Assembly: GCA_963705235.1 (NCBI GenBank)
Contig: OY970059.1
Span: 1,589,209 to 1,653,208, forward strand
Origin: an uncultured Solirubrobacteraceae bacterium
GTDB taxonomy: Bacteria > Actinomycetota > Thermoleophilia > Solirubrobacterales > Solirubrobacteraceae
Length of the DNA stretch: 64,000 bases
Direction of reading: 5' to 3'
Shown: piece by piece, positions 23,982 through 64,000 of the stretch
Position numbering within the stretch: position 1 is the first letter of the stretch
How the letters are laid out: the number at the start of each line of letters is the position of its first letter
Translations under genes and position numbers: made by a program
Notes under the pieces: generated by a model
What the model was told of the DNA's origin: nothing
The model's database searches: none
The model's input: the letters and a program-made list of their open reading frames with translations, nothing else

Positions 23982-24068
23982 GGCGTGAGCCTACCAAGCC
24001 GTGCGAGCGCCCGGTGTCGTACGCTGGAGCGCACCGCCACCGACCGTCCGGCCGGTGGACGAGCACCC

Positions 24069-24157
24069 GGAGAGGTGCCGGAGCGGTTGAACGGGCGCGA
24101 CTGGAAATCGCGTAACGGGGGAAACCTCGTTCGAGGGTTCGAATCCCTCCCTCTCCG
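24069..24157 (+). tRNA. tRNA-Ser (GGA)
   Basis: GGAGAGG/CCTCTCC acceptor, CGCGA-CTGGAAA-TCGCG anticodon arm, long variable arm, GGTTCGAATCC T-arm; CCA not encoded. Confidence 0.97.
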
Positions 24158-24320
24158 TTTTTGCTTTCCGCCGAGCGTGCCACTGCGGGACAGCACGTTT
24201 GGGTGCCCAAGGACATCGGCGGAGGTCGTTGCCCTTGGGCGAGACCGACCTTAGCAAGGCTTAGAGTCCTAGTACTGGACACCCTGGACTTTGACCCTAG
24301 CACTCCGACATGTTTCTCGT

Positions 24321-27945: not shown

Positions 27946-28845
27946 TTACGGTGTGGGTGTTATTTCGTCCTTGATGGTCGTGCCTTCCTCTGACAGCTCG
28001 AGTTCACCATTGTAACTACCATTGGTACTCGTACCCGCACAGGCTCCACCGCTGCCTTCGGCGTTGATGCCTTTCACACTCATAAACGCCGTAGTTGCCG
28101 TTTCTTTCACTGAATCCTCTGCATATATTACGGGTTCGAGGTTTTTGTTGTTGCCTCCTGTTACAAGTTTGACGCTACAGTTCGCTGTCGGAAATGTGAT
28201 GACTACTGGTTTCCCAGTAATACCTAGGGCATCTCCCGCCCATAGATCGTATTCCGCATTGGAGATGGTCACCGATTCTTTCGATGATGCTTCACACCCA
28301 CTGTATTTGAGGGTGATCACCTTGACCGTTTTTGCACTCGATGCCGGACCGCCGCCAGTCGCCGTCGAGCAGGTGATCTTTTTTTCTTTGATATTGAATT
28401 CCGGTTTAGATGCACTGGCGGCTTTCACCACGCTGATGCCCGACCAGCCTGGTTCCGCATACACCAGGGTATACCGATTCAGCCCTTCGAACCCTTCGAC
28501 AGGATTTGTGCAGGTGTAGTTGGAGAACCAGCCGGTACCTTGAGCTTCTGCTTGTGTGCATACTTCTTTATTGGTGCCTGAGCGTAATGTCCACACAGAT
28601 TGCCACCAATACTGCCAGGTTTCCGCTAAGACAAATGCTCTTGTGCCGCCTGACGTTTTGCAGTTGCTATCTTCCCAGTCCCCATATAGTCTTTTGTCCG
28701 TTGTCGCGCCTGTATTTTTAACAGTCGGTACAACCTTGAAGCATTTCGTGGCAGATGCCGGAGTCGCTCCGATTGCCGACCACGCTGGAAGAAGAAGAAG
28801 AATTAGCAGCCCCAGTGTCGTCGTAGTCCGTCTCATTTGACTCAC
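27946..28845 (-). CDS. Low-GC secreted Cys-containing beta-rich hypothetical protein
   Basis: Signal peptide (LGLLILLLLPAWSA), many Thr/Ser/Gly/Cys, A/T-ending codons; one sampled 60-bp line is 43% GC. Confidence 0.8.
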   Translation of the reverse strand: MSQMRRTTTTLGLLILLLLPAWSAIGATPASATKCFKVVPTVKNTGATTDKRLYGDWEDSNCKTSGGTRAFVLAETWQYWWQSVWTLRSGTNKEVCTQAEAQGTGWFSNYTCTNPVEGFEGLNRYTLVYAEPGWSGISVVKAASASKPEFNIKEKKITCSTATGGGPASSAKTVKVITLKYSGCEASSKESVTISNAEYDLWAGDALGITGKPVVITFPTANCSVKLVTGGNNKNLEPVIYAEDSVKETATTAFMSVKGINAEGSGGACAGTSTNGSYNGELELSEEGTTIKDEITPTP

Positions 28846-43345: not shown

Positions 43346-43358
43346 ACTACGGCGCTCT

Positions 43359-43432
<74 letters not shown>

Positions 43433-43448
43433 TCGCTCGCGGTCAACT

Positions 43449-43472: not shown

Positions 43473-43684
43473 GATTCGGCCGTTGTCTAGCCCGCCAAAG
43501 CGCCGCCGCCCTGGCTGAGGAGCTGCTGCAGGGTGGTCTGCTCCCGCTCGATGCGCTCGGTTTGGCGTCTCATGACGTTGACAGAGACCCTCCCCGGTAC
43601 CGGCCCACGACGCGAGCGCTTAGCTTGTGAGGGCCAGGGCGGCTGGCTGCGCGGCCTCAAATGCGCATGCGGAACGGTACGGAG

Positions 43685-44347
43685 ATGATCCTTCCCGACG
43701 AATTAGGAGGCAAGTTGCGAAAACGACGTAGGAGTCGGCAAGAGAAGCTGAAAGTTCTCTACTGTGATGATGACGCTCGCTATATAGACGCCTTTCGGGC
43801 ACGCCACGCCGATAATTTCGATGTAGAAGTGCAGTCCAGTATCAGCGGCGTCTACCGTGACATTTCTGGTCGCCGGGATCGGGAGCTTCCCGACGTTCTA
43901 CTTCTCGATCTCTATCACCCTACGTCGCAGGTGACTGCGGACGCACTTGTAACTCGCGAGGCGGCCAAGGCGAAGCTGGAGGCCTTGTCCGCCATGATCC
44001 GAGAAGTTCGAGAACACGTCGACAGAGCTTGGACTCCGTCGGCGATTAGTGTCCTTGAGGAGCTTCGCGCGGAGTATCCCGAGTACAAGCTCCCCGTGAT
44101 GATCTACACCCAGCGTGGGCTGCTAATGCTCACTGACGCCGAGATCCGGCGGATCGAGGACGCCGACGCCGACTGGCTGCTGAAGGACCCTGAGCGGATC
44201 TCTGACGCGACAGAGGCAGCTTGGATACGGAGGTACGTTCGAGTGGCCAACGCCGAGCGGCACCTCCCACGGGACATGCGGCTGACAATCGGATCGGTAG
44301 TGGCGTCGACGGCACTCGGCGTAACCGTTACGCTGCTAGTGACGTAG
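43685..44347 (+). CDS. Orphan receiver-domain protein with helical insertion and C-terminal TM anchor (alternative TTG start at 43715)
   Basis: VLYCDDD, VLLLDLY, PVMIYT, WLLKDP; C-terminal IGSVVASTALGVTVTLLVT. Confidence 0.75.
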   Translation: MILPDELGGKLRKRRRSRQEKLKVLYCDDDARYIDAFRARHADNFDVEVQSSISGVYRDISGRRDRELPDVLLLDLYHPTSQVTADALVTREAAKAKLEALSAMIREVREHVDRAWTPSAISVLEELRAEYPEYKLPVMIYTQRGLLMLTDAEIRRIEDADADWLLKDPERISDATEAAWIRRYVRVANAERHLPRDMRLTIGSVVASTALGVTVTLLVT

Positions 44348-44448
44348 TCGTTTGCTGGAGTGAGCCTCTGCTCGCGCAACGCGGATTGTGCGACGGGCTG
44401 AGCGGTAGTAGGCTATTTCGTTCCAGCTGATGGACTTTGGAGGATCAA

Positions 44449-45033
44449 ATGGCTAGCTTTGAGGATTCTGCGGGCGAATATGTCGGACAGGTTGTGGTCG
44501 ACGCATCAATCGTCCTCAGTGAGGACCCCGGCGGCGAGCGCCAGGACATCACAATGACCGGCATGGTTCGTATTCGTGAGTGGCCTTCCAGAGACGATGA
44601 GCGTCGGACGTTGGATGATGGCCGCACGCAGATCGACCTCGAGATGGTTGAGTCCAGAGTAGAGGGGCTACTTGCGGCTGGAGACGACGCCATTCACATC
44701 ACCGAGACGACCGGCAACCGTAACTACGGAACGCTGACGCAAGAGGTCGCCGGACAGGACTTTCCCGCACACTTCAAACTTATGCGTCTTATCTCGGTTG
44801 AGACACCTATCGGCCGGCTCCATAACGACCAGCCGATCGAGATCGAGGCGACTCTAACCGCCATCCCGCCTGTTGTATCCGCTGAGGTCCGTGAGGGGCC
44901 TAACGTTTTTGAAGCAGTAAATACTCCGGTACCGCTCCTGAACGATGCTGGGGACGTGGTTGCCTACTTTTCGGGTGATCCCGCTACTAGGAGTAATTGC
45001 GTTGTTCGTATGGTCTCTGCCGAGTCGGCATGA
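44449..45033 (+). CDS. Acidic beta-rich hypothetical protein
   Basis: GGAGGA RBS at 44439; QDFPAHF..VETPIGRLHNDQP..TLTAIPP; lower GC than flanks. Confidence 0.75.
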   Translation: MASFEDSAGEYVGQVVVDASIVLSEDPGGERQDITMTGMVRIREWPSRDDERRTLDDGRTQIDLEMVESRVEGLLAAGDDAIHITETTGNRNYGTLTQEVAGQDFPAHFKLMRLISVETPIGRLHNDQPIEIEATLTAIPPVVSAEVREGPNVFEAVNTPVPLLNDAGDVVAYFSGDPATRSNCVVRMVSAESA

Positions 45034-45108: not shown

Positions 45109-47112
45109 TCAAGGCGCACCTTTGACTTGCTCGACCTCGGTCATCATCGCGACCGCTGGGCCACGGGGCTGGTTCAGGTCGGCTGCCGCATACGCCGCAC
45201 GCCAGTCGTCGCCTTCCCGGCGAATCACCTCGGCGGTGTCCTGGGTTGCCCAATCGTCGCTCGCACCCGCCTCGCCTGGGATTGGCTCAGGTGCCGCCGG
45301 TCCCGACTCGCCCGTCGTCGCGGAACGCTGCGCACGCGCGGCTGGCACGACATTCTCCGGCTCGACCCCATCGGCGTAGGCGCTCGCCATCGCCGTGCTG
45401 AGGAGCCCCTCACCCGGTGCAGGCGCAGGCACGGGAGCAGCCGTGGGTGCAAGTGCAGGAGCGGGTGCGGACGCAGGAGCGGGTGCCGGCACAGGCGCGG
45501 ATGCGAAGGTGCTCGGGGGCGAAGCGACCGAGTAGCGGAACTGCCCGCTCTCGTCGGTCACCCAGAATGCCTCGCCGTCCTCGGTCACCTCGTGCAGGAT
45601 CGAGCGGTCGTAGCGTTCGGCGATCCCGACCAGCGCCTCCATGTCGGCCACGTCGATCACCGCCACGCCGGGCTCCTGCCACACGCGCGCGACCGGAACG
45701 ATCAGACGGGCGTAACGCGATTGGATCGCCGCGGTCTCGTCGCGGCGGCGCGGGCGGACGAGCACCAGGATCACGGCCAGCGCGCACGCGATCAGGACGA
45801 TCCCCGCGAGCGCAATCGCACGCGCGGTCGCGACCGACACGCGGGCCGGCCCTATCGACACGTACAGCGGCTGGTAGCGGCGCCCGCTGGCTGAGCCGGA
45901 GGTGGTGGTGGCGAACTGACTCGGCGGCGGCTTGCCTTCGAGGCTCGCCGAGGATGCGCCGGTCGAGCTGTCGCTCGCCGACACCGCAGGCTGCACCTCG
46001 AGCTGATTGACGGTGAAGCGGATCGGCGGTGAGAACGTGGTGTGCAGTGCCAGTCCGCCGAGCGTGCCGGTCGCGCTGACGTGCGGCATGACCGTGAGCG
46101 TGTAGGAACTGCGCACCGCGGTGCTGGCTTCCACGCGGTGGATCAGCGCCAGCATCGAGGACAGGTCCAGCGTGCCGGTGACGAGCGCGTGATTGCCGCG
46201 GAAGTATGTGACATGCCCGAGCGGGAGCGTCGCGTGCCAGCCGCTCGTCGATCCCACCAGCGCCGACAGCCACGCCTTGCCGGCGATCGCATGCTGCGCG
46301 TCGGTGTGGAACCCGTAGCCGAAGCGCAGGTTGACCTTGTCCACGACGTGTGTGAATAGCGGGTCGCCGGTGACGGCCTGGCCGCTCGGGTAGGCCGGCC
46401 CCGGGTCGGCGTTGGCGGTGTATGAGAGTGCGCCGCTCTGCCGGTAGGGGATGCTCGCCGGCAGCGGCGCGCTCGACGCGCGTGTGAACGCCAGCAGCGC
46501 GAGCGCTACGAACGGCAGCATCGCCACCAGGCCGACCGCCAGCACGCCGACCATCTGCTCGGAGGGTCCCCCGAACGACGACGTGAGCGCGCCCTGGGAC
46601 TCCGCGGCGCGCCGCTGGCGGCGGCGACGGCGATGCCTGCGCGCAAACGCTGCCCCCGCGAACAGGAGCGTGCCGAGCGCCACGAGCATGCCCACCAGGG
46701 CCGGCGAGCGAATCGACTGCAGGCGCCCACCGGCGGCGGGCACGTGCAGCCACAGGGCGCCGATCAGCTGGCTGCCGGCCGGATGCTCGAAGTCGACGAA
46801 GTTGTTGTGATCGCCCTTGAACACGTAGCGGTCGCCGCTGCGGCCGATGATCCGGTGCAGGACGATCGTGTGGAAGACCTTGCTGTGGTAGGCGACGATC
46901 TCGCCCACGTGGTAGCTGCCCTGGCTACGTACCAGCGCCAGGTCACCTGAGTGAAAGCGCGGCTCCATGCTGACCCCGTCGGTCACCACGTAGGTGGCGG
47001 AGCCGCCGAGCCCGGTCGGAGCGAAGAAGAGCCATAGGCACGCTAGCGCGATCAGCGCTAGACCGCTTGAAACGAGCTTCGTGGTGTGACGAGTTCGTCG
47101 CATGGCGGCCAC
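45109..47112 (-). CDS. SipW/ER-type signal peptidase I fused to a membrane-bound DUF5305-like domain
   Basis: GVSMEPRFHSGDL (Ser), IVLHRII (His), VFKGDHNNFVD; further TMs, extracellular beta domain, LIVPV motif, PA-repeat tail. Confidence 0.82.
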   Translation of the reverse strand: MAAMRRTRHTTKLVSSGLALIALACLWLFFAPTGLGGSATYVVTDGVSMEPRFHSGDLALVRSQGSYHVGEIVAYHSKVFHTIVLHRIIGRSGDRYVFKGDHNNFVDFEHPAGSQLIGALWLHVPAAGGRLQSIRSPALVGMLVALGTLLFAGAAFARRHRRRRRQRRAAESQGALTSSFGGPSEQMVGVLAVGLVAMLPFVALALLAFTRASSAPLPASIPYRQSGALSYTANADPGPAYPSGQAVTGDPLFTHVVDKVNLRFGYGFHTDAQHAIAGKAWLSALVGSTSGWHATLPLGHVTYFRGNHALVTGTLDLSSMLALIHRVEASTAVRSSYTLTVMPHVSATGTLGGLALHTTFSPPIRFTVNQLEVQPAVSASDSSTGASSASLEGKPPPSQFATTTSGSASGRRYQPLYVSIGPARVSVATARAIALAGIVLIACALAVILVLVRPRRRDETAAIQSRYARLIVPVARVWQEPGVAVIDVADMEALVGIAERYDRSILHEVTEDGEAFWVTDESGQFRYSVASPPSTFASAPVPAPAPASAPAPALAPTAAPVPAPAPGEGLLSTAMASAYADGVEPENVVPAARAQRSATTGESGPAAPEPIPGEAGASDDWATQDTAEVIRREGDDWRAAYAAADLNQPRGPAVAMMTEVEQVKGAP

Positions 47113-47162
47113 ATGGGAGGGGGCGGCCTCGCGGGCCGCCCCCGTTTCCCAAGCTGGTGTGA

Positions 47163-47600
47163 CTATTCGATGGTGACCGTGCCGCTGCTCACTGCAGCCA
47201 CGGACAGCTTCAGACCTTCCCCGTCAGGGACGGGTGATTTGAAGGTGCATTTGACCGCGTACGGCGCCGATCCTTCCGAAGCGCCGCAGTCGGCCCAGTT
47301 CGCCGTTTCCGGCGTGCCCGGCGTCAAGGCCACGGCCACGTCAGTCGCGGCCTTGTCCAGTTCAAACGTGACGCCGACCATCGTCAGCCCATCGCCGCTG
47401 AAGATGTAGTTGGCGGGAGATGAGACGGTGTAGCCGCTCACTTCCGCCGCACCTGCACCTGCTGAGTGGCTGGCGACCGTGTTGCTCGCGGTAAACGCAT
47501 AGGCGCCCACCCCGATCACAGCCGCAATGGCGAACGCCAAAGCGCCCGCCGCCTTGCGGTTGCGGCCCAACAGGCCGCGCTTGCCAGTAATTCCGAACAC
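47163..47600 (-). CDS. Small secreted TasA/CalY-like fibre subunit candidate with SipW-type signal peptide
   Basis: Long basic n-region, h-region, GAYA/FTASNTV cleavage pattern, Gly/Ala/Ser beta-rich body, two Cys. Confidence 0.65.
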   Translation of the reverse strand: MFGITGKRGLLGRNRKAAGALAFAIAAVIGVGAYAFTASNTVASHSAGAGAAEVSGYTVSSPANYIFSGDGLTMVGVTFELDKAATDVAVALTPGTPETANWADCGASEGSAPYAVKCTFKSPVPDGEGLKLSVAAVSSGTVTIE

Positions 47601-47733
47601 GTCAAGCCCCCTTTTTGGATTGTGGACACTTGCGTGTCCTCCCGGGGCAAATCGGAGCCGTCTTTATGAATCTTTACGTCTGCAGATCCAGTTGCACGAA
47701 TTTTCCATCGAGGCTGGTGGGCACGATCCGGCG

Positions 47734-48450
47734 TTAGCCGGTCGGCTGCTGGGCGGGCGAGCGCTTGACCTCGTGTGAGATGCGCCGTTGCAGGTTTGCG
47801 GCGAGCAGCTTTGCTCGGGCTAGGCTGATCCTCCCGTTGGCGACGGCCGTGGTGAGCGTCTCCTCCCGTTCGTGAACGATCGCCGCGATCAGCCCGGACG
47901 CCGACTTGCCGTTGCTGGCCTCGGCCAGTTGGGCTAGCGAATGCCCGTGCTGCTGTTCGCTGTGGACCCGTGCCACCGACATCCCCAGGTATTTCGCTGC
48001 GCCCGCCAGGTCCGCGTTGCCGCTGCTCACGTGGCGAACCCGACGCACCCAAGCCGCTACGCGCGCGTGTATCGCGGCCAAGCTGTCCGATTGGCTGGTA
48101 GTCGTGGCGCCGGCGCTCGGACCGGTCTGCGTGCGTGCCGCTTTCGCGCCCACGATCGCCGCGATCAGTCCCGCGGCCGACTTCCCGTTGGTGTGGTCGG
48201 CCACCGCTGCAAGCGTCCGGCGGGTCGAGAGCTGCTGGCGTATCTGGGTCGGCGTCAGGCTCAGGTAGCGCGCTGCCACCGCCATGTTGCCAGCCGGCTG
48301 CGTGTGCCCAGCCCCGGCCCGCCCCGCGCGTGGGCGCTGGCTGCTGTGGTCGCCGTCGCCGCCGACCGCGAGGATCGCGATCACGACTCCGATGACGACC
48401 GCCGCAACGGCTACAGCGATCATCGTCCTGCGGTTGACGTTCGGCTTCAT
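47734..48450 (-). CDS. Secreted/membrane-anchored protein with two helical repeats
   Basis: N-terminal TM; YLSLTP..TLAAVADHTNGKSAAGLIAAIV and YLGMSV..SLAQLAEASNGKSASGLIAAIV. Confidence 0.75.
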   Translation of the reverse strand: MKPNVNRRTMIAVAVAAVVIGVVIAILAVGGDGDHSSQRPRAGRAGAGHTQPAGNMAVAARYLSLTPTQIRQQLSTRRTLAAVADHTNGKSAAGLIAAIVGAKAARTQTGPSAGATTTSQSDSLAAIHARVAAWVRRVRHVSSGNADLAGAAKYLGMSVARVHSEQQHGHSLAQLAEASNGKSASGLIAAIVHEREETLTTAVANGRISLARAKLLAANLQRRISHEVKRSPAQQPTG

Positions 48451-48725
48451 CCCCTGGCTCCCACCGAAAAGCGTATCTACCAAGCTTGTCTCCAAGTGTA
48501 GTTTGGCGCTCGCGCATAAGCCGCCGCTAAGCTGGAATCGCGGCTCAGCCGGGCGTCTGAGTGGCGATTTGCTGTGCTAATCTCCCGGCTTCGTTGATGA
48601 GTGTCGCGCTGCGAGACGTGTACGCAGACGTATCCTGGCTGTCTGGCCAAAAAGACGCGTCCCGCCTGCGCTGCCGGTACCTCGCAACCGGGCGCTTCCT
48701 GCTGCTGTAATGGGACCGTCAATCG

Positions 48726-48839: not shown

Positions 48840-49658
48840 ATGAGGAGCACTAGGGTCAAACTAGGCGTTGTTGTCGCGGTGGTGTGCGCATTCGGTGCGC
48901 TGGCCGCGCCGGCGTTCGCGAAAATCGAAAAAGAACCAGTCGTGTTCGGCAAATTCATCGCGAGTCTTCCGGGGGGCACGATCTCCGAAGGTAGTCCGGC
49001 CAAGGCGACTGGCATCGGGGAACTCTCGGAAGCCAAGCTCGGCCCGCTCGAACTAAGCGAAGGCTGTGAAAAGGAACTCAAATCGGTGTCCAGCGTGACA
49101 TCGGAATCCTCGAACACGTTCGCAGCCGAGATCACCTTCAAGAAGTGCCCTGTCTACATGAACTGGGAAGGTGGCAGCAAAGAAAACAGGGTCAAGACCG
49201 AAACGAGCTTCAAGCTTGACATTACGTTCCACTCGAACGGCGCATTGGTGTTTGGCGAAGAAGGCGGGGAATTCGAAATCTCCAAAGCCACGCAGCCGAT
49301 CAAGATCAGGAAGAACTACTGCACCGGACTGGTCGTGATTCCGGCGCAGGTGATCCCGTTCCGGGCGGTGAAAAACCCCGAAGATGAATTCGAAGCCGCC
49401 AGCTACGGCACTGAACACGAAAGTGTGTCCGGCGGAAAGCTGAAAAAGTTCCCGAGCGGTTTCCAGGAAAAGCTCGACGTTGAATGGGAACTGAAAAAAA
49501 TCAAAGTCGAAGCAACTGAAACCGAACACTGCCAGTGGGGCGCCCAGCCCATCAACACTGAAACTGGTCGCAGGGAATGGAAAACCGGCACGATGGAAGC
49601 CGAACTGGAAGAAATTACGATTTCAGGTGGCAACATCGGCTTCGAACCGAAAAAATAG
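48840..49658 (+). CDS. Secreted Glu/Lys-rich beta protein with Cys pairs
   Basis: Signal peptide (VVVAVVCAFGALAAPAFA), AGGAG RBS, GAA/AAA-rich codons. Confidence 0.82.
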   Translation: MRSTRVKLGVVVAVVCAFGALAAPAFAKIEKEPVVFGKFIASLPGGTISEGSPAKATGIGELSEAKLGPLELSEGCEKELKSVSSVTSESSNTFAAEITFKKCPVYMNWEGGSKENRVKTETSFKLDITFHSNGALVFGEEGGEFEISKATQPIKIRKNYCTGLVVIPAQVIPFRAVKNPEDEFEAASYGTEHESVSGGKLKKFPSGFQEKLDVEWELKKIKVEATETEHCQWGAQPINTETGRREWKTGTMEAELEEITISGGNIGFEPKK

Positions 49659-63764: not shown

Positions 63765-63998
63765 TCAGCGGATCAGGATCGGCGGGCTGTAGCTTGACAC
63801 GTGCGCACCGTCTGAGACCTTGATCAGCGCGCGGTACAGGCCCCGGTGTCGCACGCGCACGACCCGGCTGAAGCGCGACACGGTGGGCGTGGCTGATTTG
63901 ACGACGGTGCCGCCGACGTTTACCGAGCGCCCGCGCTGCAGCAACTGGAAGCCGACCAGCGCGCCGACCTCGGCGGGGGTGACGGCGCCGTACAGGCG
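63765..63998 (-). CDS. C-terminal beta domain of a gene running off the window end
   Basis: Open frame RLYGAVTP..VGFQLL..GLYRALIKV..SPPILIR-stop. Confidence 0.6.
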   Translation of the reverse strand, partial: RLYGAVTPAEVGALVGFQLLQRGRSVNVGGTVVKSATPTVSRFSRVVRVRHRGLYRALIKVSDGAHVSSYSPPILIR

Positions 63999-64000
63999 CA

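Follow-up and report, generated by a model that had tools for sequence, protein, structure and literature searches.

A two-gene signal peptidase-substrate cassette in Solirubrobacterales and a candidate donor-strand fibre subunit

Introduction

What is the product of a gene pair that encodes a small secreted protein and, directly behind it, a signal peptidase fused to a large membrane module? Such a pair lies on the minus strand (positions 45109 to 47600) of a 64,000-nucleotide stretch of DNA from an uncultured Solirubrobacteraceae bacterium (GenBank assembly GCA_963705235.1, contig OY970059.1, positions 1,589,209 to 1,653,208), which is the whole stretch analysed here and is called the window below; the host genome is a single contig of 2.82 Mb. 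A first-pass annotation, made from the letters of the window, had read the pair as a candidate TasA-like fibre system, with a pilin and a SipW peptidase fused to a DUF5305-like part that would serve anchoring or nucleation. Our analysis retains as secure, on sequence evidence, a predicted dedicated peptidase-substrate cassette of the SipW/Sec11 plus DUF5305 kind, carried as an accessory unit in Solirubrobacterales and other Actinomycetota. That its product would be a chaperone-free donor-strand fibre, with the segment FTASNTV... as the donor strand, is an analogy with characterised systems that we regard as close to an even call, tilted slightly towards yes.

Results

The small secreted protein gene (47163..47600, minus strand) encodes 145 amino acids from a GTG start, with a Shine-Dalgarno sequence AAGGGGG 6 nt upstream. 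It is followed, after a spacer of 50 nt, by the fusion protein gene (45109..47112, minus strand), whose 667-residue product has four transmembrane segments (TMs) and combines a signal peptidase I of the endoplasmic reticulum (ER)/archaeal type, a DUF5305-type module and a low-complexity tail; gene callers place its start three codons later, at an ATG, giving 664 residues. The elements from which the first-pass annotation had started, namely a 145-residue secreted protein with a GAYA site, FTASNTVASHSAGAG and two cysteines 50 bp upstream of a 667-residue gene, were all present. To place the pair among its relatives we scanned one genome per species, which gave 190 loci with relatives of the small protein, and the linkage counts given here refer to the 80 loci that were fetched. 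The hosts of the 190 loci were nearly all uncultured Solirubrobacteraceae/Solirubrobacterales, with a few Gaiellaceae and 'Actinomycetes' metagenome-assembled genomes. A fused peptidase gene was observed 3' of the small gene, on the same strand and 31-223 bp away, in all 80 loci, and because of this adjacency the pairing is beyond chance. The same gene order was also observed in five genomes from other families or classes of the phylum and in two metagenome contigs, where the small protein was merely 32-40% identical. None of the other genes was universally linked among the 80 loci, and the claim of a self-contained two-gene unit was borne out, as was that of a dedicated SipW/Sec11-type peptidase strictly linked to a small secreted protein with a SipW-substrate-like cleavage region (80/80 loci). 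One locus from another family of the phylum (L093; genome G040 contig 12, 16050-18965) had two copies of the small gene flanking a single peptidase gene.

The extracytoplasmic peptidase domain of the fusion protein spans residues 33-136 (46705..47016, minus strand) and contains the predicted catalytic residues S48 and H86 together with D101 and D107, all four of which were invariant in an alignment of 25 fusion-protein homologues at 52-62% identity. TIGR02228, the model for archaeal/ER-type signal peptidase I, matched residues 20-145 with 62.7 bits (cut-off 51.85). The best match among PDB sequences was human SEC11A, aligned over residues 15-130, with its SMEP and HR motifs lining up with S48 (GVSMEP) and H86 (LHRI). 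These two results confirm the Ser (GVSMEP) and His (LHRI) peptidase that had been read from the letters, and on their strength the N-terminal domain is classified as an ER/archaeal-type Ser-His signal peptidase I. The fusion protein scored 21.8 bits against the Bacillus SipW equivalog model NF046067 (cut-off 190) and fell far below the cut-off of the bacterial LepB model; by these scores it shares its class with SipW but is not a SipW orthologue. More than 570 homologues of the fusion protein were found, the majority with PF17231 and PF00717.

The remainder of the fusion protein is read as a DUF5305-type module (residues ~187-525; 45538..46554, minus strand) comprising TM3, an ectodomain of 218 residues, TM4 and a conserved cytoplasmic domain. 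Hydropathy places the four TMs at residues 13-31, 134-152, 190-208 and 433-451, with an Arg-rich loop (RRHRRRRRQRR) inside and both the peptidase domain and the Ser/Ala/Thr-rich 218-residue domain outside. The cytoplasmic 'LIVPV' domain was strongly conserved among the 25 aligned homologues (RYxRLIVPV...FWVTDESGQFRY), and the protein ends in a Pro/Ala-rich acidic cytoplasmic tail (residues 526-667; 45112..45537, minus strand) whose length and sequence vary among homologues. PF17231 (DUF5305) matched residues 401-521 over model positions 89-211 with 23.2 bits, below its gathering score of 29. The family is precomputed on most fusion-protein homologues, however, and a distant homologue gave 27.8 bits over almost the full model (positions 3-217). 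The published DUF5305 architecture consists of an extracellular beta-sandwich, two TMs and a cytoplasmic alpha/beta domain (bioRxiv 10.64898/2026.01.04.697558), and the order of TM, ectodomain, TM and cytoplasmic domain is found here from hydropathy and charge distribution. The further TMs, the extracellular domain (218 rather than about 230 residues), the LIVPV domain and the PA-rich tail had all been noticed earlier, and the proposed fusion to a DUF5305-like part is supported by PF17231 on the homologues and by the matching topology. A role of that part in anchoring or nucleation did not find support; the literature regards DUF5305 as an accessory subunit of signal peptidase that is at times fused to signal peptidase I (bioRxiv 10.64898/2026.01.04.697558). 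Bacterial peptidase-DUF5305 fusions were already listed in the Tafi paper (PMC11821415).

The host genome encodes one other S26 enzyme, a 219-residue protein with the motifs SGSMEPTL...KRV...GDNR..S.DSR whose gene lies between rplS and rnhB. From its Ser-Lys motifs and its rplS-lepB-rnhB context we identify this enzyme as the housekeeping LepB and, because a canonical LepB sits elsewhere in the genome, the fused peptidase, its sole TIGR02228-type enzyme, is taken to be a specialised second signal peptidase. Among the genomes sampled, the cassette was present in 3 of 7 from the genus, 3 of 201 from the order and 12 of 401 from the phylum. One congener without the cassette has regulator genes instead in the stretch from tRNA-Arg(ACG) to a conserved gene for a 412-residue protein (p412), and in the window a dip in GC content runs across 43.5-50 kb. 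These observations support an accessory, variable spot at tRNA-Arg; we do not claim a mobile element. The two tRNA genes of this region, tRNA-Arg(ACG) (43358-43434) and tRNA-Ser(GGA) (24068-24158), are separated by 19 kb in the window but by only 1.2 kb in a congener (L099). The DNA between and beyond them is therefore a variable region with accessory genes, among them a sulfatase/sulfotransferase pair. In other relatives (L004, L006) this pair and the cassette lie no more than 3-6 kb from each other.

The small protein has a single hydrophobic segment, which is N-terminal (residues 18-36) and preceded by a basic N-terminus. Residues 1-35 were predicted to be a signal peptide with cleavage between A-Y-A and F36, leaving a mature protein of 110 residues (10.8 kDa, isoelectric point 4.3) that is free of Arg. 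Close homologues numbered 335, at 65-81% identity, and C105 and C118 were invariant across homologues. A profile search of 1.84 billion representatives yielded 844 clusters (50% identity) at E <= 0.001, mostly of 120-145 residues, with the common pattern (Y)AF(T/A)AxNTV...AGxG..SGYxV...W..C...C...LxVxA. Across the family the cleavage region has a small residue at -3 (A, V, T, G or S), A or G at -1 and F at +1; small residues at -3 and -1 before Phe fit a type I cleavage site. Invariant mature positions, taken from 77 sequences with identity down to 38%, were F1, T2, A3, N5, T6, V7, A12, G13, G15, G36, P62, W67, C70, C83 and A101, nine of which (of 15) fall within the first 15 residues (FTASNTVxxHSAGAG). 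The most conserved segment is the mature N-terminal extension FTASNTVASHSAGAGAAEVSG (residues 36-56; 47433..47495, minus strand), a candidate donor strand and/or peptidase recognition element.

A comparison of loci L056-L086 with L007-L050 distinguished at least two subunit types, one of ~110 mature residues and one of 118-145 mature residues with insertions. The two are ~43% identical to each other, and their peptidases are ~55% identical to that of the window. Within the type of the window, the subunits were 71% identical, compared with 56% for the peptidases. No Pfam or NCBIfam model matched the small protein of the window at E <= 0.1. The resemblance of its G-x-Y-A/F-T to the motif of TIGR04088 (SipW-dependent-type signal) is by eye only, with no match of the hidden Markov model (HMM); among 24 family members a single distant one matched TIGR04088, and weakly (E 0.0017). 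Automatic annotation at JGI labels three close homologues (P0017, P0018 and P0414) as 'type 1 fimbria pilin', a label that no Pfam Fimbrial match in our scans supports.

AlphaFold2 modelled the mature sequence with a mean predicted local distance difference test (pLDDT) of 82 and a predicted template modelling score of 0.74, as a six- to seven-strand beta-sandwich of ~90 residues at pLDDT 84-91. Mature residues 1-11 had no secondary structure in this model, and the first 20 averaged a pLDDT of ~60. The full-length model (pLDDT 66) agreed with the mature one. The top Foldseek matches were generic Ig/FN3-like structures, e.g. FIP/FN3-like domains and Ig-like domains of FlgD.

Two non-coding elements accompany the small gene. 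The 50-nt spacer, with a folding energy of -40 kcal/mol, contains a GC-rich hairpin, GGGGGCGGCC-CGCGA-GGCCGCCCCC (47119..47143, minus strand), that lacks a U tract. Of 81 loci, 77 had such a GC hairpin (10-15 bp) behind the small gene, with an unbroken stem of 10 bp or more (median 12 bp), stem sequences that differ and, likewise, no U tract; control windows of equal size within the peptidase gene had such a stem in 11 of 234 cases. The hairpin is likely a terminator/attenuator or a stabiliser of the mRNA 3' end that would keep subunit expression above peptidase expression, and its conservation 3' of the small gene is what a protein produced in surplus would lead one to expect. On the 5' side of this gene, ~24 nt from its start codon, lies the palindrome GGACAC-N4-GTGTCC (47624..47639), a candidate operator or hairpin of the 5' untranslated region that would control the small gene. 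Of 79 loci, 70 had the form GGACAC-N4-5-GTGTCC at the same relative position, ~37 nt ahead of the start codon, and it was otherwise absent from the 1.8 Mb of those loci; one locus had a symmetric variant, GAACAC...GTGTTC. Rfam held no family for the spacer or the leader. Within the 2.8-Mb genome of the window itself there were three palindrome sites compared with ~0.7 expected, and on sequence these may mark a small regulon of surface proteins. The second site (C1:1654279, ~1.07 kb past the window end) lies ~45 nt 5' of a gene whose secreted product has FN3-like repeats ('FQYG..Y...TP...TYHYR'). A paralogue of this gene is oriented divergently to it and has its 3' part at ~63765-64000 of the window. 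The third site is at C1:1960907.

The genes around the cassette were less constant. Directly 5' of the small gene, a 253-residue single-TM protein (47734..48495, minus strand) with two helical repeats of ~45 residues (AA.YLxxxxxxxxxxxxxGxSLAxxAxxxNGKSAxGLIAAIV) is a facultative neighbour, present in 30 of the 80 loci; it gave weak helix-turn-helix-like Pfam matches (HTH_8/wHTH), all below cut-off, and may be an accessory or regulatory partner. Further upstream and divergent is the gene for p272 (48840-49658, plus strand), a 272-residue secreted protein that is Lys/Glu-rich, lower in GC and has a classical AFA/K cleavage site; it could be assigned to no family. It was observed in 33 of the loci, syntenic with p412 (26 of 80), and was rejected as a part of the system since a p272-like gene also adjoins p412 in the congener without the cassette. 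A BLASTP comparison found no similarity between p272 and the protein encoded at 27946-28845. The receiver and DUF6004 genes 3' of the cassette (43661-45033) were likewise rejected, being linked in 0 of 80 loci.

Discussion

The small gene encodes a Sec-exported pre-protein, and if the cassette makes a donor-strand fibre, the fused peptidase would cleave this pre-protein after A-Y-A35. Cleavage would release an acidic, disulfide-bonded beta-sandwich of 110 residues, the first ~15 of which would stay outside the monomer fold and slot into the following subunit as its donor strand. The outcome would be a thin homopolymer at the cell surface, either a fibre or a matrix, that forms without chaperones, as for archaeal Tafi, Mth60 fimbriae and TasA. 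In such a scheme the hairpin would hold subunit expression well above peptidase expression, and the palindrome would place the small gene under a dedicated regulator. We lean towards this account because the characterised systems with the same signature (Tafi, AbpX and TasA) make fibres. An invariant N-terminal extension that AlphaFold2 leaves unstructured fits a donor-strand subunit like those of Tafi, TasA and Mth60, and both the conserved hairpin and the conservation of the subunit above that of the peptidase are signs of a structural, highly expressed product.

Among the closest parallels are the archaeal Tafi (Tat-fimbriae) and Sec-type taf-like clusters, in which an ER/archaeal-type signal peptidase (TafD) and a DUF5305 protein (TafG) are encoded beside small secreted Ig-like subunits (the pilins TafA/TafE) (PMC11821415; PMC12337348). 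Mature TafA begins at Phe, as established by mass spectrometry (PMC11821415), and we predict the same start for our subunit. A further likeness is the N-terminal extension, for which a role as donor strand has been shown or proposed (proposed in our case), and Tafi assemble without a chaperone or usher. The systems differ in that the Tafi peptidase and DUF5305 are separate proteins rather than one polypeptide, and in that Tafi loci have a TafC-like tip, a TafF-like anchor and a TafB regulator where we observed a single subunit gene. Export is by Tat in Tafi and by Sec here, and the present host is a bacterium (Thermoleophilia). No similarity of the subunit to TafE or DUF1102 could be detected in sequence or with Foldseek.

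AbpX loci, of the TasA superfamily, also place a dedicated TIGR02228 peptidase behind a secreted subunit that has a pair of cysteines, and the same study describes DUF5305 as a peptidase accessory, its fusion to signal peptidase I in Anaerolinea (E8MZY1) and a minimal two-gene locus in P. abyssi (bioRxiv 10.64898/2026.01.04.697558). The AbpX peptidase, however, has about ten TMs compared with four here, and AbpX itself has 163 mature residues, a TasA-superfamily fold that was not detected in our subunit and Ca2+-mediated strand complementation. The tapA-sipW-tasA operon of B. subtilis likewise combines a fibre protein with the specialised Ser-His signal peptidase of which it is the substrate, and TasA uses its mature N-terminus, A-F-N..., as donor strand (PMC9674648). 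TasA differs in being a jelly-roll of ~230 residues that belongs to Peptidase_M73 (no match here); SipW lacks a DUF5305 fusion, and a TapA-like nucleator is present there and absent here. The Mth60 fimbriae of Methanothermobacter resemble the present case by description, with a single Sec-exported subunit of ~15 kDa that self-assembles (PMC11821415). In the 'open' AlphaFold monomer of Mth60 the N-terminal strand points off the globule (PMC11821415), and our mature model resembles it. A linked peptidase-DUF5305 fusion has not been reported for Mth60.

Several observations weigh against a fibre. Peptidase_M73, DUF1102, Fimbrial, TIGR04088, TIGR04089 and TIGR04090 did not match the small protein of the window, and the 24 family members had no relevant Pfam match. 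Foldseek searches of the PDB with the full-length and mature monomer models reached best E-values of 0.1 and 0.13, with no TasA, AbpA or TafE chain in the top 50 of either, and searches of PDB sequences with the single sequence and the family profile returned chance matches only (amylase, HiPIP, nanobody). Homology to known fibre subunits was thus not found in Pfam, NCBIfam, the PDB profile search and Foldseek. The cassette also has no gene for the tip, adaptor or anchor subunits that most Tafi, AbpX and TasA loci encode, and the conserved N-terminus could serve recognition by the peptidase or DUF5305 alone. Polymerisation, cleavage by the fused peptidase and surface location are all steps that we infer. 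Membership of the TasA superfamily (Peptidase_M73, AbpA, AbpX) was not supported, as there was no family match and no shared jelly-roll or TasA-like fold in Foldseek. The label 'TasA-like' accordingly did not survive the HMM and Foldseek searches; the first-pass annotation had itself named the lack of a TasA/AbpA-like fold as a refutation, and formally this is what was found for family membership, which leaves the mechanism unsettled.

These same observations give room to a different outcome for the pair, in which the peptidase is dedicated to its neighbour and the product does not polymerise. The mature protein would then be secreted or bound to the wall and work as a monomer or oligomer, for instance as a surface coat, an adhesin or a binding protein, with its N-terminus conserved only for recognition by the SipW-type peptidase and its DUF5305 ectodomain. 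Besides the lack of a tie in fold or sequence to known fibre subunits and the lack of conserved tip or anchor genes among the 80 loci, the compact and apparently complete sandwich at high pLDDT agrees with such a factor. A conserved stretch of ~15 residues past the cleavage site nevertheless far exceeds what a type I signal peptidase needs, the hairpin implies bulk production, and the known systems that combine a SipW-type peptidase with DUF5305, namely Tafi and AbpX, make fibres (PMC11821415; PMC12337348; bioRxiv 10.64898/2026.01.04.697558). We consider a non-polymeric product rather unlikely, if still a serious competitor.

The strict linkage, in which most loci apparently have a single subunit gene for each peptidase gene, could also be explained if the N-terminal segment stayed uncleaved and the small protein were a membrane-anchored partner or regulatory subunit of a peptidase-DUF5305 complex rather than its substrate. 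Eukaryotic signal peptidase complexes contain small membrane subunits and offer a precedent for such a partner. The A-x-A/F site is conserved across the family, however, the hairpin suggests unequal expression of the two genes, and some genomes have two small genes flanking one peptidase gene (G040), all of which make an uncleaved partner quite improbable. Weakest is the proposal that the fused peptidase serves secretion in general and that its adjacency to the small gene is incidental: it is the sole TIGR02228-type enzyme of the genome, as that proposal would have it, but with a canonical LepB present, the cassette missing from most congeners and relatives, and the adjacency kept in all 80 loci as well as across classes, we give it almost no credence.

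Returning to the donor-strand fibre, the peptidase-DUF5305 fusion and the general type of cassette are already published. The subunit family, the occurrence in Solirubrobacterales and the minimal two-gene form with hairpin and palindrome have not been described before. The earlier remark that no characterised example is known from this lineage therefore stands for Solirubrobacterales and fails for the bacterial peptidase-DUF5305 fusion, which appears in PMC11821415 and bioRxiv 10.64898/2026.01.04.697558. A bolder possibility, which we offer tentatively and expect to be wrong somewhat more readily than right, is that the family constitutes new minimal self-assembling fibre subunits of Actinomycetota and probably Chloroflexota, with a fold that is unrelated to that of TasA/Tafi or has diverged from it past recognition, which would polymerise by the invariant FTASNTV strand. 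Their machinery would be a single fused peptidase-DUF5305 protein whose cytoplasmic domain would connect the cell interior with processing or assembly. If true, two genes, one hairpin and one operator would make up the smallest complete fibre system known.

Only recently have cassettes with a dedicated SipW-type peptidase been recognised, in archaea and Firmicutes, as the signature of donor-strand fibres that form without chaperones (TasA, ABP, Tafi, AbpX). The locus described here carries that signature into the abundant uncultured Thermoleophilia of soil, in a form stripped down to one 10.8-kDa subunit and one fused protein. Should the subunit not polymerise, the pairing of SipW-type peptidase with DUF5305 would not be diagnostic of fibres, which matters for annotation. 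Should it polymerise, the cassette would offer a small and tractable model for chaperone-free assembly by strand exchange, for the role of DUF5305 and for the biofilm matrix of soil Actinomycetota.

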